Shown: positions 27,850 through 40,767 of the stretch, piece after piece
Layout of the letters: each line of letters starts with the position of its first letter
Numbering within the stretch: the stretch's first letter is position 1
Notes under the pieces: generated by a model
Told to the model about the DNA's origin: nothing
What the model saw: the letters and a program-made list of their open reading frames with translations, nothing else
Databases searched by the model: none
Origin: an uncultured Acidobacteriota bacterium
GTDB lineage: Bacteria; Acidobacteriota; Thermoanaerobaculia; UBA5066; Gp7-AA6
NCBI GenBank assembly: GCA_963765835.1
Contig: CAVXYF010000020.1
Location: forward strand, 20,731-84,730
Direction of reading: 5' to 3'
DNA length: 64,000 nt
Program-made: the position numbers and the translations under genes

Positions 27850-28395
27850 TCACATCATTCCGAGTTGCAGCTTCGCCGCGTCCGACATCATTCCCATGCT
27901 CCACGGCGGGTCGAAGAGGACCTGGACGTCCGCCTCCGCGATGCCCGGCACGGTGAGCAGTTTCTGACGGATGTCTTCCCGCAGAACGTCGCCCATCCCG
28001 CAGCCCGGCGCGGTGAGCGTGAACCGGACGTCGACCTTGTTTCCGCCCCCCGGGAGCGGAGTCAGCTCGACTCCGTAAACGAGTCCCAGGTCCACGATGT
28101 TGACCGGGATCTCCGGGTCATAGCAGGTGCGGAGCTGGTCCCAGCAGAGCTCTTCGATCGGCTTCGCGGGGCCGGCCTCTTCGGCCGGCTTCGCGGCGAT
28201 CTCCTCGCCGATCGCGTCGGCGTCCTTGCCGTCGATCCGCGCGAGATATCCCATCGGGACCATCACGGTGTAGGAACCGCCGAGCGACTGCGTGATCTGC
28301 AGCCGCGTCCCGGCCGGAATCGTGAAACGGGTGCCGGCGGGGATTTCGCTGGCCTCGAGGTCACGGGTCGTCATCGCTTCCTTCTGGGACCACAT
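27850..28395 (-). CDS. sufT: Fe-S assembly protein SufT (DUF59)
   Basis: TQSLGGSYTV, CYDPEIPVNIVDLGL, TLTAPGCGMG, FDPPW. Confidence 0.92.
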   Translation of the reverse strand: MWSQKEAMTTRDLEASEIPAGTRFTIPAGTRLQITQSLGGSYTVMVPMGYLARIDGKDADAIGEEIAAKPAEEAGPAKPIEELCWDQLRTCYDPEIPVNIVDLGLVYGVELTPLPGGGNKVDVRFTLTAPGCGMGDVLREDIRQKLLTVPGIAEADVQVLFDPPWSMGMMSDAAKLQLGMM

Positions 28396-28397
28396 GG

Positions 28398-28892
28398 TCA
28401 GGCTCCTCCGCTTTCGGCCTTGGGGCCCTCGGTGAGCTCCGTCGACACCGTCGTTTCCGCGCCGGCGAGCGCCGCGCGAAGGGTGTGCCAGGGGAGGGTC
28501 GCGCACTTCACGCGAACCGGAAACTCGCGCACGCCCGAAAACACGGTGAGCTTGCCGAGCTCCGGAGCACCGGCCGTCTCGTTTCGTCCATCCTTGCCGG
28601 TGATCAGGTCGTGGAAGCGTTCGAAGAGCGCCTCCGCCTGAGCGCGCGACTTTCCCTTCACGGCCTCGGTCATCATCGAGGCGGACGCGGTGGAGATGGC
28701 GCAGCCGGCTCCCCGGAACCCGACGTCCTTCAGGAGATCGTCCTCGAGTCGAATGAAGACCGTCTCCCGGTCGCCGCACAGCGGGTTATACCCATCGGCC
28801 CGGCGGTTCGCTCCCGCGAGCTCGCCGAAATTCCGCGGCCTCTTGCTGTGATCCAGGATGACTTCCTGGTACAGCTCGCGCAGCTCGCCCAT
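28398..28892 (-). CDS. sufU: SufU-type NifU scaffold / sulfur-transfer protein
   Basis: LYQEVILDH, NPLCGD, GCAISTASASMM, RVKCATLPW. Confidence 0.93.
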   Translation of the reverse strand: MGELRELYQEVILDHSKRPRNFGELAGANRRADGYNPLCGDRETVFIRLEDDLLKDVGFRGAGCAISTASASMMTEAVKGKSRAQAEALFERFHDLITGKDGRNETAGAPELGKLTVFSGVREFPVRVKCATLPWHTLRAALAGAETTVSTELTEGPKAESGGA

Positions 28893-30151
28893 CAGCGGAA
28901 CATCCTCTGGACCTTGTGGATCCCCTCGGTCAGCGCGTCGATTTCCCCGCGGGTGTTGTAGATCGCGAGCGACGCCCGCGCGGTCGCCGGGATCCCGAAG
29001 AACTCCATGACCGGCTGCGCGCAGTGGTGCCCGGTCCGGATCGCGATCCCCTCCTGGTCGAGCACGGTCCCGATGTCGTGGGGGTGGATGCCCTCCAGAG
29101 TGAAGGAGAGAACGCCGATCTTCTCCCGCGCGGTCCCGATCACGGTGAGGCCGGGCAGCGCCGTGAGGGACGACGTCGCGTAGTCGAGGAGGTCCTGCTC
29201 GTGCGCCGTGACGTTTTCGATTCCGATCCCGGAGATGTAGTCGACCGCGGCCCCGAGCCCGACGGCCCCCGCGATGTCGGGCGTGCCCGCCTCGAACTTG
29301 TACGGGAGGACGTTCCACGTCGTCTTCTCGAACGTCACGGAGCTGATCATGTCGCCGCCCCCCTGGAACGGGGGCATCGCCTCGAGGAGATCCGCGCGGC
29401 CGTAGAGGACTCCGATCCCGGTCGGGCCGTACATCTTGTGCGCCGAGAAGGCGTAGAAGTCGCAGCCGATTTCCCGGACGTCCACCGCGAGCCGCGGCAC
29501 CGCCTGGGCCCCGTCGATCGCTACCGGGACTCCGCGGGCGTGCGCGATCTCCACGATCCGCCGCACCGGCAGGAGCGTCCCGAGCGCGTTCGAGACGTGA
29601 CCGACGGAAACGATGCGCGTGCGCGGAGTCAGGATCCGCTCGAGCTCCTCGATCCGGACCTCTCCAGTCCGGTCGATCGGCACCACCTTCAGGTGCGCCT
29701 TCTTCTCGTCGCAGAGGAGCTGCCAGGGAACGATGTTCGAGTGGTGCTCGAGCGCGGTGATGACGACCTCGTCCCCCTCGCCGACCCGCTGGCGCCCGAA
29801 CGTCTGGGCGATCAGGTTGATGCCCTCGGTCGTGCCGCGGACGAAGACGATTTCGCGCACGTCCGCGGCGTTGATGAACGCGCGCACTTTTTCGCGGGCC
29901 TGCTCGTACGCGTCCGTCGCCTCCACGGAGAGCTGGTGCACTCCGCGGTGGATGTTTCCGTAGGACCGGCGGTACATGTCGGCGCCCGCGCTGATGACGG
30001 CCTCCGGCTTCTGGGTCGTCGCGGCGTTGTCGAGGTAGACGAGAGGCCGGCCGTGGACCTGGCGCGACAGGATCGGGAAGTCGCGGCGCAGGGCCTCCAC
30101 GTCGAGGCGGTGGCCGCTCCCCGCGGGGCGGACGCGCGCGGAGGAGCTCAT
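28892..30151 (-). CDS. sufS: Cysteine desulfurase
   Basis: YLDNAATTQKP, LEHHSN, DGAQ, SAHKMYGPTG, RTGHHCAQP. Confidence 0.96.
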   Translation of the reverse strand: MSSSARVRPAGSGHRLDVEALRRDFPILSRQVHGRPLVYLDNAATTQKPEAVISAGADMYRRSYGNIHRGVHQLSVEATDAYEQAREKVRAFINAADVREIVFVRGTTEGINLIAQTFGRQRVGEGDEVVITALEHHSNIVPWQLLCDEKKAHLKVVPIDRTGEVRIEELERILTPRTRIVSVGHVSNALGTLLPVRRIVEIAHARGVPVAIDGAQAVPRLAVDVREIGCDFYAFSAHKMYGPTGIGVLYGRADLLEAMPPFQGGGDMISSVTFEKTTWNVLPYKFEAGTPDIAGAVGLGAAVDYISGIGIENVTAHEQDLLDYATSSLTALPGLTVIGTAREKIGVLSFTLEGIHPHDIGTVLDQEGIAIRTGHHCAQPVMEFFGIPATARASLAIYNTRGEIDALTEGIHKVQRMFR

Positions 30152-31464
30152 CGCCCGCCTCCCGGCAGCCGCAGACCGAGGTGCTGCTCGACCAGCGCCC
30201 GGAGGGGCGCGACGCGAATCCTCGAGGCGACGTCGCTCGCGAAGGCGTATACGAGGAGGTTCCGGGCCTCGTCCTCTCCGATCCCCCGGGACTGCAGGTA
30301 GAACATTGCTGCCGCGTCCAGCTGCCCGATCGTCGAGCCGTGCCGGCACTTCACGTCGTCCGCGAAGATCTCGAGCGCCGGCTCCGAGTTGACCAGCGAC
30401 TCCTTCGACAGCAGGAGGTTCTTGTTCGTCTGCATCGCGTCGGTCTTCTGCGCGTCGGGGCGCACGATGATCGTCCCGTGGAAGATTCCTCGGGATTTCC
30501 CGTCGAGGATCCCCTTGTAGAGCTCCCGGCTCGTGCCGTGCGGCATCGCGTGATCGATGAGCGTGTGATTGTCGAGGAGCTGCGTGCCGTTCCCCAGGAA
30601 CAGGCCGTTCAGCGTGCAGTCGGCGCCCTCGGCGTCGAGCCGGACGTTCAGGTCGTGGCGCGCGAGCGCGCCGCCGAGCGAGATCGAGTGCGACGTGAAG
30701 TTGCTGTTGCGTCCGAGGCTCACCGCCGTCGTCCCCACGTGGAAGGCCGCGTCCCCCTCGCGCTCGAGGCGGGAGAAGTCGAGCACCGCGCCGTCGCCGA
30801 GGACGATCTCGGTGACGGAGTTCGTGAAGTACGCCTCTCCCGCGGTCCCCAGGTACGTTTCGACCACCGCGGCCTGGCTGCCGGCCTCGGCGACGATGAG
30901 GTTCCGGGGGTGCGACACCGTGGGGCCGAACGTCGGTTCCGAAAGAAACACGAGGTGGATCGGGTCGGGCACCTGGGTGCGCGCCGGGATCCGGAGGAAA
31001 ACCCCGTCCTCCACGAACGCCGAGTTCAGCTGCGCGAAGGCGTTGCCGTCGCGGACGATCTTCGCCAGGTGCGGTTCGACCGCTTCGGGCCTCGACGCCA
31101 GCAGGTCCGCGAGGCTCGCGACCTCGAGACCCCCGGTGAGAAGGCCCACCGAAGACAGGTCCGGCGCGTAGCGGCCGTTGACGAAGACGATCTGAACTCC
31201 AGCCTCCGCCGGCAGAGGAATCTGACTCCCGAAGGATCCCCGCTCGGCGTCTGCCAGCTGGTAGGGAACCTTCACGAAGGGCGCGACGTTCGTGTACTTC
31301 CAGGCGTCCTGGCGAACGGTGGGGAAGCCCGTCGCGCGGAACCGCTCCATTCCGGCGCGGCGGATCTCCGCGAGCCAGCCCGGGTCGCGGGCCGACCGCC
31401 GCTCGCGGTACGACTCGGAGATCGAGCGCTCGAGGCCGGCGGTCTCGGTGGCGACCGCTTCCAT
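30148..31464 (-). CDS. sufD: Fe-S assembly protein SufD
   Basis: WKYTN, KGIL.GKSRGIF.G.I.V...AQKT, PALEIFADDVKCRHGSTIG. Confidence 0.95.
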   Translation of the reverse strand: MEAVATETAGLERSISESYRERRSARDPGWLAEIRRAGMERFRATGFPTVRQDAWKYTNVAPFVKVPYQLADAERGSFGSQIPLPAEAGVQIVFVNGRYAPDLSSVGLLTGGLEVASLADLLASRPEAVEPHLAKIVRDGNAFAQLNSAFVEDGVFLRIPARTQVPDPIHLVFLSEPTFGPTVSHPRNLIVAEAGSQAAVVETYLGTAGEAYFTNSVTEIVLGDGAVLDFSRLEREGDAAFHVGTTAVSLGRNSNFTSHSISLGGALARHDLNVRLDAEGADCTLNGLFLGNGTQLLDNHTLIDHAMPHGTSRELYKGILDGKSRGIFHGTIIVRPDAQKTDAMQTNKNLLLSKESLVNSEPALEIFADDVKCRHGSTIGQLDAAAMFYLQSRGIGEDEARNLLVYAFASDVASRIRVAPLRALVEQHLGLRLPGGGR

Positions 31465-32251
31465 CAGGCGACCGTCAGGGGGGCGGGCGAGGTCTTCGCC
31501 GGGGGCTCCTTCTCGAGCCAGGAGTACCCCTTCTCCTCGAGCTCCAGCGCGAGCTCCTTGCCCCCCTCCAGCACGATGCGGCCCTCGACCAGGACGTGAA
31601 GGAAGTCCGGAACGATGTAGTTGAGGAGCCTCTGGTAGTGGGTCACGACGATCATCGCCCTCTTCGGCGTTCGCAGAGAGTTCACGCCGGCCGCGACGAT
31701 GCGCAAGGCGTCGATGTCGAGACCGGAGTCCGTCTCGTCCAGGATCGCGAGCGTCGGGTCGAGGATCGCCATCTGGAAGATCTCGTTGCGTTTCTTCTCG
31801 CCCCCCGAAAAGCCCTCGTTGACCGGGCGCTTGACGAGCTCCTCGTCGATGTCGACGAGCTGCGCCCGTTCCTTCACGAGCGACAGGAACTCGAACGCGT
31901 CGAGCTCCGGCAACCCGCGGTGCTTCCGGACCGCGTTCAGCGCGTTCTTGAGAAAGTAGACGTTCGACACGCCCGGGATCTCGACGGGGTACTGGAACGC
32001 GAGGAAGACTCCCTCGCGGGCGCGGAGCTCCGGCGCCATGGTCAGCAGGTTCTGTCCCTTGAACAGGACCTCCCCGGCGGTGACCTCGTAACCGGGGCGT
32101 CCGGCGAGGACGTGGGCCAGAGTGCTCTTCCCGGAGCCGTTGGGTCCCATGATCGCGTGGACCTCTCCGGCGTTCACCGTGAGGTCGACTCCGCGGAGGA
32201 TTTCGTTGCCGGCGACTCTCGCGTGGAGGTTCCGGACCTCGAGGAGCGCCA

Positions 32252-32252
<1 letters not shown>
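31464..32252 (-). CDS. sufC: Fe-S assembly ATPase SufC
   Basis: GPNGSGKS, FQYPVEIPGV, NEGFSGGEKKRNE, LDETDSGLDID, VTHYQRLL. Confidence 0.97.
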
Positions 32253-33697
<1,445 letters not shown>

Positions 33698-33817: not shown

Positions 33818-35698
33818 GTGGGAACGCGTTTACCTCCGGTCGCGTCACCCCCCGATCGGCCCCTGGTCGTCTTCGACGGCGACTGCGAGTTCTGCCGCTT
33901 CTGGATCGCGCGGTGGAAGAGCGTCACGGGCGACCGCCTGGACTATGCGCCCTACCAGGAGGTCTCCGCGCGCCTCCCGGAGATCCCGGTCGAGGAGTTC
34001 CGCCGCGCGGTCGCGATCGTCCTTCCCACCGGCGAATCCTTCTCGGGAGCCGACGCCGTGGTCCGCGCGCTGGCGCACGTGCCCGGCCGCGGCCTGTGGC
34101 AGTGGATCTACGAGCGCGTGCCGGGCGCGCGTCCCGCCGCCAACGGCGTCTACCGCGCGATCGCGGACCACCGGGGCGCGGCCACCCGCGTCACCCGCCT
34201 TCTCTGGGGCACGGTCTCCGACGAGCCCACGTACTTCCGGTCGAGCTCGCTGTTCGTCCGGCTCCTTGCGCTCTGCTACCTCGCGGCATTTCTGTCGCTG
34301 TGGATCCAGGTTGACGGGCTGATCGGACCACGGGGGATCCTCCCGGCGGAGCGCTACCTCGAGTGGGTGAGGTCACAGCTCGGCGCCGAACGGCTGTGGT
34401 GGGTTCCCACCCTCGCGTGGCTCTCCGCGGGCCCCGGCATGCTCCACTTTCTCTGCGCGGGCGGGGCCGCGGCCGCGCTCCTGGTTTTCCTGGGCTTCGC
34501 CCCGACGCTCGGTTTGGCCGTCGCGTGGGCGTTCTACCTGTCGCTCTCGTCGATCTCGCAGACTTTTCTCTCCTACCAGTGGGATGCCCTGCTCCTGGAG
34601 GCGGGTCTGCTCGCGATCTTCCTCTCGCCGCCGGCCTGGCGGCTGCGGTTCTCGCCGTCGTCCCCGCCCTCGGCAACGACGCTTCTTCTCCTTCGCTTCC
34701 TGCTCTTCCGGCTGATGTTCTCCTCCGGCATCGTCAAGCTCGGGAGCGGCGATTCCGCGTGGCGCTCGCTCACCGCTCTCCGGTACCACTACGAAACCCA
34801 GCCCCTGCCCACGTGGGTCGGTTGGGCGTTTCACCAGCTCCCGCTCTCGTTCCAGAAGGTGTCGTGCGTCTTCCTCTTTTTCGTCGAGATCGCGGTTCCC
34901 TTTCTCGTCTTTCTCCCGCGCCGGGCCCGTCACGTCTCGTTTGGATTCTTCATCGCCCTCCAGGCTCTGATCGCGCTGACCGGCAACTACGCCTTCTTCA
35001 ACGTGCTCGCCATCGCGCTTTGCCTCCTTCTGCTGGACGACGCGGTGTTCCCCCGCCTGTCATCCCGAGCGCAGCGAGGGATCTCTCCCTCGATTCGCGG
35101 CAACGGGGCCCATCGGCAATGGCCGCGATGGCTCCTGATTTCGGTCGCGGCCGTCCTTCTCACGGCCGGCGCCGTGCAGCTCGCGCTCACGGTCCGGCGG
35201 AGCGCGGACGGCCTGCCCCGCGCCGCGGTCCGGTTCGTCGAGTTGATCTCGCCGCTCCAGAGCGTGAACCGCTACGGTCTGTTCGCCGTCATGACGACGC
35301 GCCGTCCCGAGATCGTCGTCGAGGGCAGCGCGGACGGCGTGACGTGGAAGCCGTACGAGTTCCGCTGGAAGCCGGGGGACGTCCGGGGGCGGCCCGGGTT
35401 CGTGGCGCCTCACCAGCCGCGCCTCGACTGGCAGATGTGGTTCGCAGCGCTCGAACGCTGTGGCGGGAATTCGTGGGTCCTGAACTTTCTGGGACGCCTC
35501 CTCCAGGGGGAGCCGGCCGTGCTCCGGCTGCTCGCGACGAACCCTTTTCCGGCCGAGCCGCCGCGCTACGTCCGCACGCTTCTCTACGAGTACCGGTTCA
35601 CGGACCGGACGACGCGCCGCGAGACCGGAGCGTGGTGGACGCGGCAGCTCCAGGGGCCGTACTGCCCCGTCCTTTCCCGGGAGATGCTGACGCGATAG
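33818..35698 (+). CDS. DCC1-like thiol-disulfide domain fused to a lipase maturation factor (LMF1) family membrane protein
   Basis: N-terminal FDGDCEFC; LMF1 motifs QWDALLLEAG, FRLMFSSGIVK, HYETQPLP, TGNYAFFN, YGLFAVMT, PHQPRLDWQMWF. Confidence 0.9.
   Translation: MGTRLPPVASPPDRPLVVFDGDCEFCRFWIARWKSVTGDRLDYAPYQEVSARLPEIPVEEFRRAVAIVLPTGESFSGADAVVRALAHVPGRGLWQWIYERVPGARPAANGVYRAIADHRGAATRVTRLLWGTVSDEPTYFRSSSLFVRLLALCYLAAFLSLWIQVDGLIGPRGILPAERYLEWVRSQLGAERLWWVPTLAWLSAGPGMLHFLCAGGAAAALLVFLGFAPTLGLAVAWAFYLSLSSISQTFLSYQWDALLLEAGLLAIFLSPPAWRLRFSPSSPPSATTLLLLRFLLFRLMFSSGIVKLGSGDSAWRSLTALRYHYETQPLPTWVGWAFHQLPLSFQKVSCVFLFFVEIAVPFLVFLPRRARHVSFGFFIALQALIALTGNYAFFNVLAIALCLLLLDDAVFPRLSSRAQRGISPSIRGNGAHRQWPRWLLISVAAVLLTAGAVQLALTVRRSADGLPRAAVRFVELISPLQSVNRYGLFAVMTTRRPEIVVEGSADGVTWKPYEFRWKPGDVRGRPGFVAPHQPRLDWQMWFAALERCGGNSWVLNFLGRLLQGEPAVLRLLATNPFPAEPPRYVRTLLYEYRFTDRTTRRETGAWWTRQLQGPYCPVLSREMLTR
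35058..35084 (+). repeat. REP-like half element embedded in frame in the LMF1 gene
   Basis: TGTCATCCCGAGCGCAGCGAGGGATCT resembles the GTCATyCCGAGCGnAGCGAGGrATC class of bacterial repeats; recognised from memory. Confidence 0.55.
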
Positions 35699-35701
35699 TC
35701 G

Positions 35702-37750
35702 TCAGACCCCGAACCGCTCGGGCTCCCAGGTGAGACCGAGCTCGCCCGGCGGCGCCATGTACCCGAGGAGGGCGGACGCCGCGACGACGGCGGGGCTCGC
35801 GAGGTAGCCCTCTCCGCCCACGCCCATCCGGTTCTGCCAGTTCCGGTTGAACGACGTGATCGCGCGCTGTCCCGCGGCGAGGCGGTCGGGCCCCTGGCCG
35901 AAGCACGGCCCGCACCACGACTGGCGGATCTCTCCGCCCACGGATCGGAAGACGTGCGCGATCGACTCCCCGCCGAGACGGGGGTCTGCCGCTTCGATCT
36001 GGGTCCCCACTCCGCCCGAGCCCGGAAAGACCGCCAGCGACTTCGCCACTTCGCCAAAGCCCTGCTCGCGGGCGGCGCGCAGGACGAGCGCCGCGGAGAG
36101 AAGGTCGTCGTAGCTGCCGTTCGTGCAGGAGCCGATCAGGGCCTTGTCGAAAGTGAGCCGCTCCCGCGCCACGTCCTCCGCGGGGTACGCGTTGCCCGGC
36201 GAGTAGGGCTTCGCGATCATCGGCTGGACGGAGTCGAGCTCGATCCTCTCGTCGACCTCGTACGAAGCGTCGCGGCCCGGAGAAACGCGCGGATAGGGCA
36301 GATCCCCCGGCTCGATGCCCTTGGCGCGGTACCAGGCATCCGTGACTTCGTCCGCCGCGAAGATGCCGTTCAACGCCTCGCCTTCGGCCATCATGTTGGC
36401 GATCGTGTTGCGGTACGCGATCGGGAGCTGCCGTTCCTCGTCGACGAACTCGACCGACATCCCGCCGGACTGCTTCGCTCCCCAGCGGCGCAGCAGCTCG
36501 AGGACGATGTCTTTGCCGCTCACCCACGGCTGCAGCGCGCCGCGGAAGACGACCCGCCGCTGTTTCGCGACCGTGAAGTAGATGTAGCCGGTCGACCAGC
36601 CGAAGCCGAGCGTCGTGGAACCGACCCCGAACCCCACCGCACCGTAGGCGCCGTACGCCCGACTGTGGGAGTCGGCTCCCGGGATGAACTGCCCGGGGAG
36701 CACCAGGCCCTGCTCCGGGAAGTAGAAGTGGAAGATCCCGTCCCCGGGCGTCGCGTAGTACGGCTTCTCGATCCCGTGGACCTTCGCGAACTCGCGACCG
36801 ATCGCGGTCTGGCGGTCGTCCGACTCCTTCCCCGTGAAGACGAAGTGGTCGTTGGCGATCGCGGCCTGCCTCGGAAAGATGGACTTGCCTCCGCTGATCT
36901 GGTTGAAGGTGTGGATTGCGAACGGCGCGGTTCCGTCGGACGCCGGCAGAAGGTCCGCGTACACGCGCAGGGTCGCGCCCGGCGCGACGATCGCGTCCTT
37001 GTCGACGCGGTGCGCCCAGACGATCTGTTCCGTGGTCGTCAGGCGGCGGGCGGTCTCCGGATCCGGCCAGGAGATCTCCGGAGGAGTCTCGACCGAGCGC
37101 CGGAACTCCCGGCGGCCGACCGCGAAGATCCCGCCGCTCCTCCGGATCTCCTCCTCCTTCGGAGTGAGCGGGAGCGCGTCGTAGCTTTTTGCCTTCGTCT
37201 CGTTCGTCAACCGGCGGGTCACCGGGTCGAGCGAGAACGCGTCGCCGTCCTCCGCGTCGGCCACCGCTTCGGAGCTCTGGACCACCTGCAGGCCCAGGTT
37301 GAACGCGTTGCGCCGAAAGATGTCGCCCATGTTCGCGCCGCACACGACGACGAGCTCGAGGCCGACCTCTTCGGCGACGCCCTTCAGGCCCGCCGGGCTC
37401 ATTTCCCGGGACGAGCCGATCGCGAAGCGGTCGCCCGCGACGACGAAGGTATCGCCGCGGTGGACCCTTTCGCGGAAGTTCGGCATGAGATAGCGAAACG
37501 CCCCGATCTTCCAGCGCTCGTCCAGACGGTCGAGGCTCTCGGAGACGCAGTCCGCCGCGGGCGTGATCTGGTCGGTATCGATCGCGTCGAACTTCTTGCC
37601 CGGGACCTTCGGGTCCCAGAAGACGAGAGCCCGGCCCCGGATGGGCTGTGAGGAGCCGGCGTCCGCGGAGACGATGTCGGACGGCCGCGGACCCGGGAGA
37701 TCGGCGGAGGTGACCCCGGGTTTCAGCCTCGCCGGCTCAACTCGTTGCAT
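35702..37750 (-). CDS. Aconitase-superfamily protein with a LeuD-like swivel domain N-terminal to a LeuC-like domain
   Basis: N-terminal DTDQITP and GSSRE; C-terminal DGIFH, GADSHS, GSCTNG, CGPC, TSFNRN and LASPAVVAASAL. Confidence 0.85.
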   Translation of the reverse strand: MQRVEPARLKPGVTSADLPGPRPSDIVSADAGSSQPIRGRALVFWDPKVPGKKFDAIDTDQITPAADCVSESLDRLDERWKIGAFRYLMPNFRERVHRGDTFVVAGDRFAIGSSREMSPAGLKGVAEEVGLELVVVCGANMGDIFRRNAFNLGLQVVQSSEAVADAEDGDAFSLDPVTRRLTNETKAKSYDALPLTPKEEEIRRSGGIFAVGRREFRRSVETPPEISWPDPETARRLTTTEQIVWAHRVDKDAIVAPGATLRVYADLLPASDGTAPFAIHTFNQISGGKSIFPRQAAIANDHFVFTGKESDDRQTAIGREFAKVHGIEKPYYATPGDGIFHFYFPEQGLVLPGQFIPGADSHSRAYGAYGAVGFGVGSTTLGFGWSTGYIYFTVAKQRRVVFRGALQPWVSGKDIVLELLRRWGAKQSGGMSVEFVDEERQLPIAYRNTIANMMAEGEALNGIFAADEVTDAWYRAKGIEPGDLPYPRVSPGRDASYEVDERIELDSVQPMIAKPYSPGNAYPAEDVARERLTFDKALIGSCTNGSYDDLLSAALVLRAAREQGFGEVAKSLAVFPGSGGVGTQIEAADPRLGGESIAHVFRSVGGEIRQSWCGPCFGQGPDRLAAGQRAITSFNRNWQNRMGVGGEGYLASPAVVAASALLGYMAPPGELGLTWEPERFGV

Positions 37751-37795: not shown

Positions 37796-40342
37796 TCAGT
37801 CGCTCCAGTCGTTCCCGTCGTGGCTCTTCAGCCGCGCCTGCGCCTGGCGGAACCGCGGATCCCCTCGGAGGTTGTCGAGGTCTTCGTCCCCCCGGAGATT
37901 TCCATTTGCGTCGAAGCCCGCGTCGAGCGCCTTGAACAGCCAGTTGAACGCCTCGTCCTTGCGCTCCATCAGGGAGTAGGCGCACGCGAGGTTGTACATC
38001 GTGGCCGGCTTCCGATAGTTGCGCTCCAGGGCCCGCTGGAATGCCGGGATCGCCTCGGCGGGCCGGTCCCCCTCGATGCGTGCGAAGCCCAGGTTGTACC
38101 AGGCGCGCGCGCTCTCCGGGTGGCGGCGGGTGTACTGGTCGAAGTGCTGCTCGACCTCGCGCCATGCGGCGACCCGCGTCGAGCGCAGCCACTTCTTGTG
38201 GCCGGCGACGCCGAAGTCGTCGAAGCGGTGGAGCTCCAGGTCCGCCGCCATCTGGAGGAGCTCGCGATAGCGCGGCTCTCCGCGCACGTTGTCAAGGTCC
38301 TCGTCCTTCCGGACCTGGTCGGGGTCGTCGAACCCGGCCTCGATCCCCTTCTGAAGGAAGTCGAGCGCGCGGGCCTTGTCGCCCTTCAGCGAGAGAGCGC
38401 ACGCCGTGTTGTACAGGGAGGCGCCCTCACTAAATCCGCGGGCGGCGGACGTCTGGAAAGCCTGCGCCGCCAGATCGTAGCGGCCCACCCCGAGCAGGTC
38501 CTTCCCGATCTCGTAATACGCCTTGCCTCGGGCGGCCGGCGTCGCCTTCAGGCGGGAATACCTTGCCGCAATCCGCTCGGCCTGCGCGCGATCGCCTTCC
38601 TCGTTGTTCTTCCGCGCGGTCCGCCGGATCTGCGCGAAGCGCGGATCGGAACGCAGCGAGTCGAGGTCGTCGTCCTTCGCGAGATAGGACTCGGCGTCGA
38701 AGCCTTCGTCGACCGCCTTCTGCAGCCACTCGAATGCCCGCGCGCTGTCGCCCTTCCTCGCGTAGCCGCACGCAATGTTGTAGGTCGCGGCGTCGACCTT
38801 CTCGCCCTCTTCGATCGAGTGCTGAAAGGCTGCGATCGCTTCGTCGTAGCGCTCCTCGTTGTGAAGCTCCATGCCCTTGGAGTACCAGGAACCGCCGTGG
38901 CTCTTCCGCTTGGACGCCGGAACGTAGCCGGAGACGGGCGCCTCCGCGGGTTCCGGAACTTCGGGCGCGATCGCCGCCTCGGGAGCGACTGCGGGTTTCG
39001 CCGGAGGGGGAACCTCGGGAACCTCGGGTGTCTCGGGCGCTTCTTCCGCGACCGCGTCCACGGGCTCCGCGGCGGGAGTCGCCTCCTCGTCCGTGTTTCC
39101 GTCGCAGGGCTCGTCCGCGTTGTCCGGAGTCACGACGGAGTCGGCGGTCCACGTCGAGTCCGTCGAGTCGGCGTCCGCGTAGAAACCCGACCGATCGGAG
39201 GCCGAGGCCTCCGCCGGCCGCGCGGACCACGGCTGGAAAGCTGCGAGGACGAGAACTGAGGCCAGCAGCGCTCCGCCGGCGAGCCGCGCCTGGACCGGCG
39301 AGACGACACGCCGCTTCACGTCCGGATCCAGGATCGCGCGCATCCGGCCGTCCCAGTAGGACCGGCGCGCCATGGCCACCGCGGGAAGGGCGCGCTGCCG
39401 GGAGAGCCGCAGCGAGCGGATGATCGAGAGCAGGTGGGCCGCGTAAACCGAGGCCCGGGTTCCGGACGCGAGCACCAGGTCGTCGCACGCGCGCTCGCAG
39501 TCCCGCCGCATCTGGACGCGGACGGACCAGGCGAGGGGGTGGAACCAGTAGAGGGCTCCGGCGACCTGTCCGATGACGAGCGCCACCCAGTCCGCCCGCT
39601 TCACGTGCGCGAGCTCGTGGAGCAGAACGACCCGCCGCCGTTCCTCGTTCCACCGCCGGGCGGTTTCGGGAAGCAGGACGATCGGGCGGGATACGCCGGT
39701 CGTAACCGGAACCGCGAGATCTTCGCTGAAGAGGAGCCGGATGGGCCTCGAGATCCCGAGCTTTGCGGAGAGCTCCGCGACGAGCGGGCGCCACTCGCCC
39801 GCGGCATCGGAAGACGCTCCCCGGCAGACCCGCCGCACGCGGGCCGCGCCGAGCGCGAGCCGGCCGAGCGAGAAGGCCATCCCCGCCGCCCAGCCCGCGA
39901 GGATCAGGAGCATCCCCGTCGTGCGGGAGATCGGAAGGCGCGCAGGAGTCGTCTCGGCGGCAACCGGCAGCGGAGCCGTTGAAACTTCGTTCGTCTCCTC
40001 GGGCAGCGAGACCGGTGCGGCCGCCGTGAGCTTTTCGTCCCGGATGAACGCCGCGTTCGGATCGACGGGGGGCGCCCACTCTTCTCTCGAATCCATCGCG
40101 GACTCCGACGACGGGGCCGGGACGGGGTTCGGTACCAGCGGAATCTCCCACCGCGGCGCGACGAGCGTCACGGCCGGCAGAAGAAGAGCGCCCGCGAGAC
40201 CGAGCGTTGCAACGAGCTGTCGGGCGGAGGCCGACGCGCGTCGGAGCGCGGCGAGCGCGACGCCCGTCATCAACAGGAGGACGGTCGCCTTGAGGGCGAT
40301 GTCCAGGGCGAAACGGACGGCGTTGGCGAGGTTCATTTCCAT
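37796..40342 (-). CDS. BlaR1-like M56 peptidase with an acidic/Pro linker and C-terminal TPR region
   Basis: VLLHELAHVKRAD, WFHPLAW and ERACDD, then three YN.AC..S/A...D.DL..LR.DPR-type TPR modules. Confidence 0.88.
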   Translation of the reverse strand: MEMNLANAVRFALDIALKATVLLLMTGVALAALRRASASARQLVATLGLAGALLLPAVTLVAPRWEIPLVPNPVPAPSSESAMDSREEWAPPVDPNAAFIRDEKLTAAAPVSLPEETNEVSTAPLPVAAETTPARLPISRTTGMLLILAGWAAGMAFSLGRLALGAARVRRVCRGASSDAAGEWRPLVAELSAKLGISRPIRLLFSEDLAVPVTTGVSRPIVLLPETARRWNEERRRVVLLHELAHVKRADWVALVIGQVAGALYWFHPLAWSVRVQMRRDCERACDDLVLASGTRASVYAAHLLSIIRSLRLSRQRALPAVAMARRSYWDGRMRAILDPDVKRRVVSPVQARLAGGALLASVLVLAAFQPWSARPAEASASDRSGFYADADSTDSTWTADSVVTPDNADEPCDGNTDEEATPAAEPVDAVAEEAPETPEVPEVPPPAKPAVAPEAAIAPEVPEPAEAPVSGYVPASKRKSHGGSWYSKGMELHNEERYDEAIAAFQHSIEEGEKVDAATYNIACGYARKGDSARAFEWLQKAVDEGFDAESYLAKDDDLDSLRSDPRFAQIRRTARKNNEEGDRAQAERIAARYSRLKATPAARGKAYYEIGKDLLGVGRYDLAAQAFQTSAARGFSEGASLYNTACALSLKGDKARALDFLQKGIEAGFDDPDQVRKDEDLDNVRGEPRYRELLQMAADLELHRFDDFGVAGHKKWLRSTRVAAWREVEQHFDQYTRRHPESARAWYNLGFARIEGDRPAEAIPAFQRALERNYRKPATMYNLACAYSLMERKDEAFNWLFKALDAGFDANGNLRGDEDLDNLRGDPRFRQAQARLKSHDGNDWSD

Positions 40343-40343
40343 C

Positions 40344-40739
40344 TCAGCGGCCCTCCTGCCTGGCCTCTTCGATCAATCGCGAAAGACGTTGCAACTCGTC
40401 GTCGGTCATTTCGGTACGGGAGATTTCGAGGAGGGCGGCGACCGCCTTTTCCGTGGAGCCGTCGAAGAAGGTCTTCAACATGTTCTGGAGCGCCGAGCGG
40501 CTCGCGCGGCCGCGGCCGAGCGTGGGCACCCAGACGTAGCTCTTTCCCTCCAGGACGTGGCGGAGGTGGCCCTTGGTTTCCAGGACGCGGAGCATCGCGC
40601 GGACTGCCGAGTAGCTGGGAGGATCCGGCATTCCCGAGAGGACGTCGGTCGCGGTCGCGCGACCCCGGCCGTAAACGACGTCCATGATCTGGCGTTCCCG
40701 CCGGCTCAGGTGAATCAGGGCCCGTTCGTTCAACGCCAA
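40344..40739 (-). CDS. BlaI/MecI/CopY family repressor
   Basis: LSRRERQIMD, PPSYSAVRAMLRVLE.KG, FFDGS; adjacent to the M56 gene. Confidence 0.92.
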   Translation of the reverse strand: MALNERALIHLSRRERQIMDVVYGRGRATATDVLSGMPDPPSYSAVRAMLRVLETKGHLRHVLEGKSYVWVPTLGRGRASRSALQNMLKTFFDGSTEKAVAALLEISRTEMTDDELQRLSRLIEEARQEGR

Positions 40740-40767
40740 CCTCCCCGTTATTCGGTCGGAAGCCTAC

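Follow-up and report, generated by a model that had tools for sequence, protein, structure and literature searches.

A domain-permuted, single-chain probable isomerase of LeuCD/HacAB type from uncultured Acidobacteriota and other phyla, and its likely partners in 2-oxoacid elongation

The 64,000-nucleotide stretch of DNA analysed here, hereafter called the window, comes from an uncultured acidobacterium of the GTDB lineage Thermoanaerobaculia; UBA5066; Gp7-AA6 (assembly GCA_963765835.1, contig CAVXYF010000020.1, positions 20,731 to 84,730 of the forward strand). One of its genes, hereafter the target, encodes an aconitase-superfamily protein whose swivel domain (domain 4) precedes the catalytic domains 1 to 3 on a single chain (table 1). 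The target belongs to a widespread and unusually conserved family, which is a domain-permuted, single-chain variant of the two-subunit isopropylmalate isomerases (LeuCD) and homoaconitases (HacAB). We consider it likely that the protein is a functional [4Fe-4S] isomerase of the LeuCD/HacAB branch acting on an alkylmalate, as the middle enzyme of a separate module that elongates 2-oxoacids by one carbon.

Architecture, signatures and phylogeny of the fused isomerase

The open reading frame (ORF) of the target (35705-37750, minus strand) runs uninterrupted for 682 codons from an ATG start, its TGA stop occupying 35702-35704. NCBIfam models of small subunits (LeuD/DmdB, LeuD and HacB) match residues 55-211 and those of large subunits (PRK00402, LEU2, hacA_fam and IPMI_arch) match residues 238-670, while Pfam places Aconitase at 319-663 (E 5e-72) and, weakly, Aconitase_C at 95-156. 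This order, together with the presence of Cys542, Cys613 and Cys616, agrees with the original prediction of a swivel domain followed by a large subunit with all three iron-sulfur cysteines. The DH, GIFHF, GADSHS, NMMAE, NRNWQNR and GSSRE motifs are present, and an alignment of 29 sequences (29-86% identity) shows S113/S114/R115, D301/H302, H341, D360/S361/H362, N452/E456, C542, C613, C616 and N635/R636/R641 to be invariant. The target is an intact enzyme gene, untouched by the frame splits seen elsewhere in the host assembly (3.63 Mb, 92% complete), in which indel errors are possible given that a second AcnA gene and ilvE are split across frames. The former, an AcnA-type gene at C22:107143-109577 (minus strand), extends over three reading frames and is broken in at least five places; the latter, an ilvE-like gene at C3:370277-371196, also covers three frames. 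Either assembly indel errors or gene decay may account for these two cases.

The loop following the DTDQITP motif, which in two-subunit enzymes of this type serves substrate recognition, lies in the small subunit together with GSSRE, the source of the catalytic serine and of a substrate-binding arginine (PMC7308503). In the target this loop, DTDQITPAADCVSESLDRLDERW (residues 58-80), is atypical, as had been claimed at the outset. Ungapped HMMER alignments after DTDxIxP read P-A-A-D-C-V-S-E in the target, P-A-R-Y-L-V-Y-T in LeuD of Methanocaldococcus jannaschii (PDB 3vba) and P-G-P-Y-L-R-T-T in HacB (2pkp), placing D-C-V-S opposite Y-L-V-Y and Y-L-R-T. The YLV-type recognition loop of LeuD is not present in the target, DCVS sharing the valine alone; nor is the loop arginine of HacB, which binds the distal carboxylate in homoaconitase and whose position, that of the LeuD valine, is taken by Val69. 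Residues C68-V69-S70 are unchanged throughout the family, including members with only 41-46% identity. A second family signature, ASDGTAP (residues 270-276), stands where LeuC/HacA-type enzymes have xHDxTxP. By our own mapping, its Ser271 presumably falls at the position of Gln72 in mitochondrial aconitase.

None of the NCBIfam models exceeds its curated cutoff on the target, the best being PRK00402 (290 versus 385 bits). The LeuC and LeuD models remain below threshold (TIGR02083, 259 versus 610; TIGR00170, 154 versus 560; TIGR02084, 61 versus 246; TIGR02087, 70 versus 109), as does the AcnB model TIGR00117 (58 versus 1287 bits), and no HEAT domain is found in the protein. In a phylogenetic tree of the catalytic region, obtained by a quick maximum likelihood search with one outgroup and weakly supported in its deep branches, the target family forms one clade with a support of 100 in the Shimodaira-Hasegawa-like approximate likelihood ratio test (SH-aLRT) and a stem length of 0.68, within the radiation of archaeal-type LeuC/HacA. 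The sub-threshold scores, this clade and the CVS and ASDGTAP signatures uphold the earlier proposal of a distinct aconitase subfamily. A second swivel-first family, here called type 2 (31-34% identity to the target), which is found in sister families belonging to the host's order and in further Acidobacteriota, constitutes a separate clade, also with a support of 100, and another swivel-first protein, P0242, is placed among ordinary large subunits. On the basis of these placements, the swivel-first fusion probably arose more than once.

The fold predicted by AlphaFold2 from the 29-sequence alignment has a mean predicted local distance difference test (pLDDT) score of 93.6 and a predicted template-modelling (pTM) score of 0.93, which means that a single compact body is predicted with confidence. 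Foldseek returned a probability of 1.0 to AcnB, mitochondrial aconitase and HacA/LeuC. Over the full length, Escherichia coli AcnB (1l5j) matches best, at 20% identity, with 716 aligned columns and a query-normalised TM of 0.73; by parts, HacA and LeuC of M. jannaschii reach TM 0.87-0.88 and LeuD 0.82, each normalised to the matched structure. The model has the four-domain fold of the superfamily, with domain 4 closing over the cluster. From the combination of the full-length and partial matches, the protein would work as a LeuCD/HacAB enzyme in the domain order of AcnB, minus the HEAT domain of the latter.

The family is large. More than 100 clusters at the 90% identity level lie at 79-93% identity to the query, and at the 50% level there are few full-length representatives (P0122, 75%; P0124, 46%; P0132, 43%). 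A scan of one genome per species detected at least 549 related stretches, and the best 80 loci were analysed further. Of these 80 loci, 78 have 65-84% identity and about two-thirds are full-length; all derive from metagenome-assembled genomes (MAGs) and none from a cultured organism. They include Acidobacteriota (Vicinamibacterales, Thermoanaerobaculia, Solibacteraceae and Blastocatellia) and genomes labelled Chloroflexota/Limnocylindria, Eisenbacteria, Krumholzibacteriia, Dormibacterota, Eremiobacterota, Planctomycetota, Udaeobacter, Binatus and Acidimicrobiia, one Eisenbacteria locus sitting on a 4.58-Mb chromosome record. Two matches at 32-34% identity (L109 and L111) are ordinary leuA-leuC-leuD-leuB operons without the fusion. 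Within the target clade, the branches are very short and sequences group across phylum labels, Eisenbacteria for instance falling with Chloroflexota and Marinacidobacterales.

Partner enzymes and metabolic setting

Genes were called in the 80 loci and their products clustered, with a simple caller based on GC3 (the G+C content of third codon positions) that leaves some start codons uncertain. Two partners emerged. The first is a LeuA-like synthase of ~405 residues, an HMGL-like protein of LeuA type without the LeuA_dimer domain. In four loci labelled Chloroflexota/Limnocylindria (L053, L086, L088 and L089), its gene immediately precedes that of the isomerase in the same orientation, and its TGA stop is followed after 4-5 nt by the GTG start of the isomerase; it is also found nearby in a Dormibacterota (L073) and a Udaeobacter locus (L070). 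The second is a LeuB-like dehydrogenase. The TGA of its gene overlaps the first aligned isomerase codons in Binatus (L095) and Dormibacterota (L099), the first aligned target codon being CTG in both, and in L073 it is the upstream neighbour of the isomerase gene. The host carries orthologs of both partners: a LeuA-like protein of 420 residues (L016, C22:275338-276597), which has 57-61% identity to the adjacent synthases and stays below all NCBIfam cutoffs, and a LeuB-like protein (L014, C4:2848-3897) with 53% identity to the adjacent dehydrogenases and a PRK03437 LeuB score of 409 against a cutoff of 393. The original prediction noted no leu or lys genes nearby, but a lack of pathway context is true only of the locus and does not extend to the genome: since orthologs abut LeuA-like and LeuB-like genes and the host holds both, the target appears to be the isomerase of a module and not an orphan.

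The co-occurrence data point in the same direction. The LeuA-like ortholog is present in 39 of 41 relatives and in all 12 target-bearing genomes examined from other phyla. A LeuB-like match (E <= 1e-30) occurs in 40 of the 41 relatives, with clear orthologs (at least 59% identity) listed in 33, and LeuB-like orthologs were found in 8 of the 12 genomes of other phyla at the threshold used. An evenly drawn sample of 121 Acidobacteriota genomes, all with a completeness of 90% or more, was also searched. A target ortholog (at least 68% identity) occurs in 17 of them, the type-2 fusion in ~18 and the LeuA-like ortholog in 58. The latter accompanies 15 of the 17 target-bearing genomes, all 17 that have type 2 only and ~30% of the remainder. 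Some of the genomes are unpublished (those of loci L073/G043 and L086/G044, and G024, G030 and G075, which enter the tallies only), and the conclusions hold without them because L053, L088, L089, L095, L099 and the other tallies remain. Two target orthologs are broken by frame changes and stops (G021:C2:109364-111398 and G092:C4:1672585-1674529) in genomes that are otherwise near-complete; G021 retains intact LeuA-like and LeuB-like orthologs despite its broken isomerase gene.

In the sister families f2 and f3, the LeuA-like (58-72% identity) and LeuB-like (59-76%) orthologs are retained and the type-2 fusion is found instead of the target, a pattern that looks like a swap of the isomerase within a conserved module. 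In genomes of the locus scan, the isomerase is conserved at 65-80% identity, versus 51-65% and 47-62% for the LeuA-like and LeuB-like enzymes of the same genomes. Such greater conservation, combined with the phylum-mixed branches of the tree, points to horizontal spread, to constraint of unusual strength, or to a combination of the two.

The partner genes recur beside genes of short-chain acyl-CoA metabolism and of 2-oxoacid dehydrogenases. In the host (C22; L029:9336-13817, minus strand) a tight same-strand array comprises thiolase, a 114-residue ORF, 3-hydroxybutyryl-CoA dehydrogenase, enoyl-CoA hydratase and, last, the LeuA-like gene; the same array is found in G015, G023 and G028. Other phyla show crotonase-thiolase-LeuB-like (L123, Planctomycetota), LeuB-like-crotonase-thiolase (L125, Eremiobacterota) and thiolase-LeuB-like (L124, Acidimicrobiia) arrangements, with a crotonase gene near the LeuB-like one in Eisenbacteria (L122). 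An operon for the E1alpha, E1beta and E2 subunits of a 2-oxoacid dehydrogenase ends in the LeuA-like gene in L073, and an E1 gene lies two genes upstream in L089. The host LeuB-like gene, beside a CDO-like cupin and PhoH, and the type-2 fusions, beside uvrD, have uninformative neighbourhoods.

Additional genes accompany these arrays. A XerD-type recombinase gene follows the host array. Paralogs of cluster 13, of ~390 residues with a hydrophobic N-terminus, lie between the crotonase and LeuA-like genes of G015 (L118:5757-8174, two in tandem) and G023 (L119:7038-8213, one); they have no match in Pfam, NCBIfam or the PDB and are absent from the host. A lipoprotein-like protein (cluster 43), encoded upstream of the synthase in three loci, has no Pfam or NCBIfam match and no host ortholog.

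We propose the following mechanism. By analogy with aconitase, Cys542, Cys613 and Cys616 would hold the cluster, its fourth, cysteine-free iron would bind the hydroxyl and carboxylate groups of the substrate, and Ser113 of GSSRE would serve as the base in the interconversion of 2-alkylmalate and 3-alkylmalate via an unsaturated intermediate. The short LeuA-like synthase (~405-420 residues, without regulatory domain) would deliver the substrate and the LeuB-like dehydrogenase would take up the product, in a module apart from canonical leucine synthesis and tied to acetyl-CoA and short-chain acyl-CoA metabolism. The 2-oxoacid extended by one carbon might undergo oxidative decarboxylation to an acyl-CoA and enter short-chain beta-oxidation; alternatively, the beta-oxidation genes might provide the acetyl-CoA used by the synthase.

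No match to aceA or aceB was found, and the host has a methylmalonyl-CoA mutase homolog (48% identity). Citramalate-based assimilation of acetyl-CoA has been proposed for Rhodospirillum rubrum (reviewed in PMC8307300), and a route of this kind would be compatible, though weakly, with the missing aceA/aceB matches and the mutase. The same mutase homolog weakens another rationale that we considered, namely the conversion of 2-oxobutyrate to butyryl-CoA as a way to avoid propionyl-CoA. A bolder possibility, which we regard as rather doubtful, is that synthase, isomerase and LeuB-like dehydrogenase form an undescribed route of central carbon metabolism across uncultured soil and sediment phyla, with the isomerase spread horizontally as its key part. 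This route might convert pyruvate and acetyl-CoA via citramalate into 2-oxobutyrate and propionyl-CoA/succinyl-CoA, as a means to assimilate acetyl-CoA where the glyoxylate shunt is lacking, or might perform a one-carbon 'pre-elongation' of 2-oxoacids before oxidative decarboxylation and beta-oxidation.

Substrate class and alternative roles

The original prediction did not assign a substrate. Three independent hints, namely Val69 and one motif in each of the partners, indicate that the side chain is probably small or hydrophobic and lacks a carboxylate, as in citramalate, 2-ethylmalate or 2-isopropylmalate. Where E. coli LeuB carries ExxLLxLR, the partner dehydrogenase reads LLL(R/G)xRF and the two isocitrate dehydrogenase paralogs of the host have S-x-N. 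The partner synthase reads VM(F/Y)VTED versus VEFSCED in E. coli LeuA, thus carrying Met, not Arg, before the FS position. We take the arginine at this position to bind the distal carboxylate of 2-oxoglutarate in the structures of homocitrate synthases.

One alternative is an ordinary isopropylmalate isomerase, a fused LeuDC working in leucine biosynthesis. No separate LeuC or LeuD was found in the host assembly, Val69 corresponds to the specificity residue of LeuD, the partner dehydrogenase combines the hydrophobic LeuB motif with a score above the LeuB cutoff, and IlvE, which is present, could yield 2-oxoisovalerate from imported valine. However, tblastn searches of the host with E. coli IlvC, IlvD, IlvH and LeuD gave no match, and the IlvD family, found in all 14 control genomes, is missing from all five near-complete genomes of the host family, implying that 2-oxoisovalerate is not made de novo. 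The search for leuCD elsewhere, suggested in the original prediction, found none in the host; canonical LeuC stands alongside the target in 6 of the 12 target-bearing genomes of other phyla. IlvD occurs in five of these 12 genomes, and others, including the Eisenbacteria genome with the 4.58-Mb chromosome record, have neither. Since the target coexists with LeuC or IlvD in some genomes and occurs without both in others, its presence is independent of the canonical branched-chain pathway. Moreover, both the LeuA-like and the LeuB-like protein persist in sister families endowed with canonical leuCD. The synthase is without the leucine-feedback domain and stays below every cutoff for isopropylmalate synthase, and the 259 bits of the target compare with 610 for the LEU2 cutoff. 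Given the missing IlvC, IlvD and IlvH and the coexistence with LeuC elsewhere, we rejected leucine synthesis as the main role, and an ordinary isopropylmalate isomerase seems unlikely.

A homoaconitase, acting in the extension of 2-oxoglutarate to 2-oxoadipate, would serve either lysine synthesis via alpha-aminoadipate or a degradation from glutaryl-CoA to crotonyl-CoA. The loop of the target has valine where HacB has its carboxylate-binding arginine, the synthase has the methionine just described, and the motif of the dehydrogenase is of LeuB type and not of the type found in isocitrate or homoisocitrate dehydrogenases. These features make a homoaconitase very improbable, even if the closest solved large subunit is that of M. 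jannaschii homoaconitase (4kp2), the short synthase matches homocitrate synthases in length, and crotonase, 3-hydroxybutyryl-CoA dehydrogenase and thiolase would make up the lower glutaryl-CoA pathway. The lysine route itself was rejected: none of the five host-family genomes searched has LysX above its cutoff, whereas LysA exceeds its own in four of the five.

The third possibility concerns a small aconitase for citrate and isocitrate, paired with a Re-citrate synthase. Enzymes of the latter kind are homologs of LeuA and homocitrate synthase, the target is a superfamily member with every catalytic residue, and the search for citrate synthase in the host assembly, which is 92% complete, gave no match. 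Yet ordinary (Si-) citrate synthase is present in four of five host-family genomes, and AcnA in the host and in all five near-complete relatives examined. The host has three aconitase-superfamily loci, namely an intact AcnA, the split AcnA-type gene and the target; the near-complete relatives G015 and G023 (two contigs each) have only AcnA and the target ortholog. Furthermore, the target loop has no counterpart of aconitase Arg580, and the partner dehydrogenase is LeuB-like, isocitrate dehydrogenase-type enzymes existing separately. With Si-citrate synthase and AcnA in the relatives and partner motifs that are not of the carboxylate-binding type, this pairing is in our judgement highly unlikely.

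Several observations weigh against the elongation module and its alkylmalate substrate. The three module genes are scattered in the host, where the target's own neighbours (suf, LMF1 and blaR1) are silent on the pathway, and only ~9 of 75 loci show the isomerase gene directly adjacent to that of a partner. Nor is the LeuA-like ortholog confined to genomes with the target family, since 43 sampled genomes contain it without that family, 17 of them with the other swivel-first fusion, and the LeuB-like ortholog was not found, at the threshold used, in 4 of the 12 genomes of other phyla. The counts ignore kinship, related genomes being non-independent samples, and MAGs may carry wrong taxon labels, although several loci lie on long contigs. 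Finally, the acidic loop residues D67, E71, D74, D77 and E78 have neither explanation nor precedent, and Ser271 is equally without precedent, so the substrate could lie outside those considered.

No metabolic partner lies near the target in the window. Genes of leu and lys type are missing there, as originally stated, and so are ilv genes; the target is flanked instead by a DCC-LMF1 gene, a suf operon for iron-sulfur assembly and blaI/blaR1-like genes. The first (33818-35698, plus strand) encodes a fusion protein that joins a DCC1-like thiol-disulfide oxidoreductase domain to a complete bacterial lipase maturation factor (LMF1) with LMF1_C; it is convergent with the target, with 3 nt between the stops, a position kept across genera of the host family. 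Beyond it (27850-33697, minus strand) lie sufB, sufC, sufD and sufS together with the gene of a FeS_assembly_P (SufT-like) protein; SufB and SufC have 84-91% identity across host-family genera, similar to the conservation of the target. On the other side (37796-40763, minus strand), a BlaI-type repressor gene and that of an 848-residue BlaR1 M56 protein, whose long tail is of TPR / ABhydrolase-like_N type, end 45 nt upstream of the target, in an arrangement kept only within the genus. In 19 of 75 loci, mostly of Vicinamibacterales type, an ApaG (DUF525) gene is divergent from the target ortholog (e.g. L105:7390-7797, minus strand), often with a Leu/Phe-tRNA-protein transferase gene just past it.

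Aconitases moonlight as RNA-binding regulators, and the synteny of the target with LMF1 and sufBCDS across host-family genera might therefore be taken to indicate a sensor of iron-sulfur status or an apo-form that binds RNA in the manner of iron regulatory proteins. This synteny is limited to one family, neighbours differ in the other 75 loci, and suf genes are not among the recurring annotated neighbour clusters of these loci. As the catalytic residues are all invariant and the gene forms operons with those of metabolic partners in several phyla, a regulatory role appears extremely improbable.

Table 1. Positions of the target gene, its domains and motifs in the window, and of type-2 fusions in other loci
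Feature	Position	Strand	Basis
Whole coding sequence, single-chain swivel-first aconitase-superfamily hydro-lyase/isomerase (682 aa + TGA)	35702..37750	(-)	ORF, Pfam, NCBIfam
Domain 4 (swivel; LeuD/HacB-type small-subunit homolog), residues ~36-215	37106..37645	(-)	NCBIfam TIGR02087 at 55-211; PDB 3vba, 1v7l, 2pkp; Foldseek TM 0.82 normalised to 3vba
DTDQITP motif and substrate-recognition loop, residues 58-80	37511..37579	(-)	D67-C68-V69-S70 in place of YLV(Y)/YLR(T); loop role per PMC7308503
GSSRE, residues 112-116, catalytic Ser and substrate-binding Arg of domain 4	37403..37417	(-)	Invariant in alignment; role per PMC7308503
Linker between domain 4 and domain 1, residues 216-237	37040..37105	(-)	Gap between NCBIfam small- and large-subunit matches; high pLDDT
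Domains 1-3 (LeuC/HacA-type large-subunit homolog), residues 238-670	35741..37039	(-)	NCBIfam PRK00402 at 238-668; PDB 4kp2, 4nqy; Foldseek TM 0.87-0.88 normalised to matched structure
ASDGTAP, residues 270-276, family-specific Ser271 where LeuC/HacA xHDxTxP has His	36923..36943	(-)	Sequence comparison
GSCTNG with Cys542, first [4Fe-4S] ligand	36116..36133	(-)	PDB comparison, alignment
CGPC with Cys613 and Cys616, second and third [4Fe-4S] ligands	35903..35914	(-)	PDB comparison, alignment
NRNWQNR, residues 635-641, two conserved substrate-carboxylate-binding Arg	35828..35848	(-)	PDB comparison, alignment
Type-2 fusion (~655 aa) beside uvrD helicase gene	L021:8873-10843; L022:8944-10905; L024:9815-11857		Sister families f2/f3

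Comparison with known systems

Public records name members of the target family 'aconitase family protein' or '3-isopropylmalate/(R)-2-methylmalate dehydratase large subunit', and the partner synthase 'LeuA family protein'. Owing to such generic names, metabolic reconstructions either count the target as evidence of leucine synthesis or ignore it. The lineages affected (Vicinamibacterales, Thermoanaerobaculia, Limnocylindria, Dormibacterota, Eremiobacterota, Eisenbacteria and Udaeobacter) are abundant and uncultured in soil. Naming the substrate would supply a missing piece of carbon metabolism in these organisms, and the protein is a single-chain, easily expressed candidate for the toolbox of 2-oxoacid elongation enzymes.

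The closest relatives in sequence are LeuCD and HacAB of M. jannaschii (MJ0499/MJ1277 and MJ1003/MJ1271; PDB 4kp1, 4nqy, 3vba, 4kp2 and 2pkp), whose large subunits match the target with E values of 5e-48 to 2e-46; the Foldseek alignments show ~27-31% identity and the same fold (TM 0.82-0.88 normalised to the matched structure). The cluster ligands and the GSSRE, NRNxxxR, DSH and DH motifs are common to the two groups, as would be the expected chemistry. Unlike these two-subunit enzymes, the target is one chain with the small subunit first, has a DCVS loop versus YLVY or YLRT and serine for the histidine of xHDxTxP, and belongs to a separate clade that stays below the model cutoffs.

A 2021 overview divides the aconitase superfamily into eight subfamilies with three architectures, listing the N-terminal position of domain 4 for AcnB and describing bacterial isopropylmalate isomerase (IPMI) and homoaconitase (HACN) as two-subunit enzymes (PMC8184944). 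AcnB (1l5j) shares the 4-1-2-3 order with the target and is the sole solved enzyme of that order in the Foldseek hit list, but has 865 residues with a HEAT-like N-terminal domain, versus 682 and no such domain, at 20% identity. Given the sequence affinity of the target to LeuCD/HacAB, the common order most likely reflects an independent fusion. At least two separate swivel-first fusions have probably occurred in the LeuCD/HacAB branch, an architecture not listed for bacterial enzymes of IPMI/HACN type in that overview; full-text searches of the literature likewise brought up no paper describing a swivel-first fusion of LeuCD type. The type-2 fusion has the same domain order as the target and is accompanied by the same LeuA-like ortholog in each of 17 sampled genomes, yet differs in its loop, PGW(T/V)C(F/Y), and in its clade, with 31-34% identity to the target. 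The two fusions are probably of independent origin, or else diverged very early.

With respect to the canonical pathways based on LeuA-LeuCD-LeuB or CimA, the module would follow the same logic of Claisen condensation with acetyl-CoA, isomerisation and oxidative decarboxylation, its partners being homologs of LeuA and LeuB. It differs from them in a synthase that lacks LeuA_dimer and falls under every cutoff, and in its occurrence both in genomes without IlvC and IlvD and beside complete canonical operons. Its genes, unlike the canonical ones linked to ilv and leu, lie by those of thiolase, crotonase, 3-hydroxybutyryl-CoA dehydrogenase and 2-oxoacid dehydrogenase. The module persists in branched-chain amino acid auxotrophs beside acetyl-CoA and acyl-CoA genes, and the target is most likely the isomerase of this separate LeuA-like/LeuB-like route of 2-oxoacid elongation.

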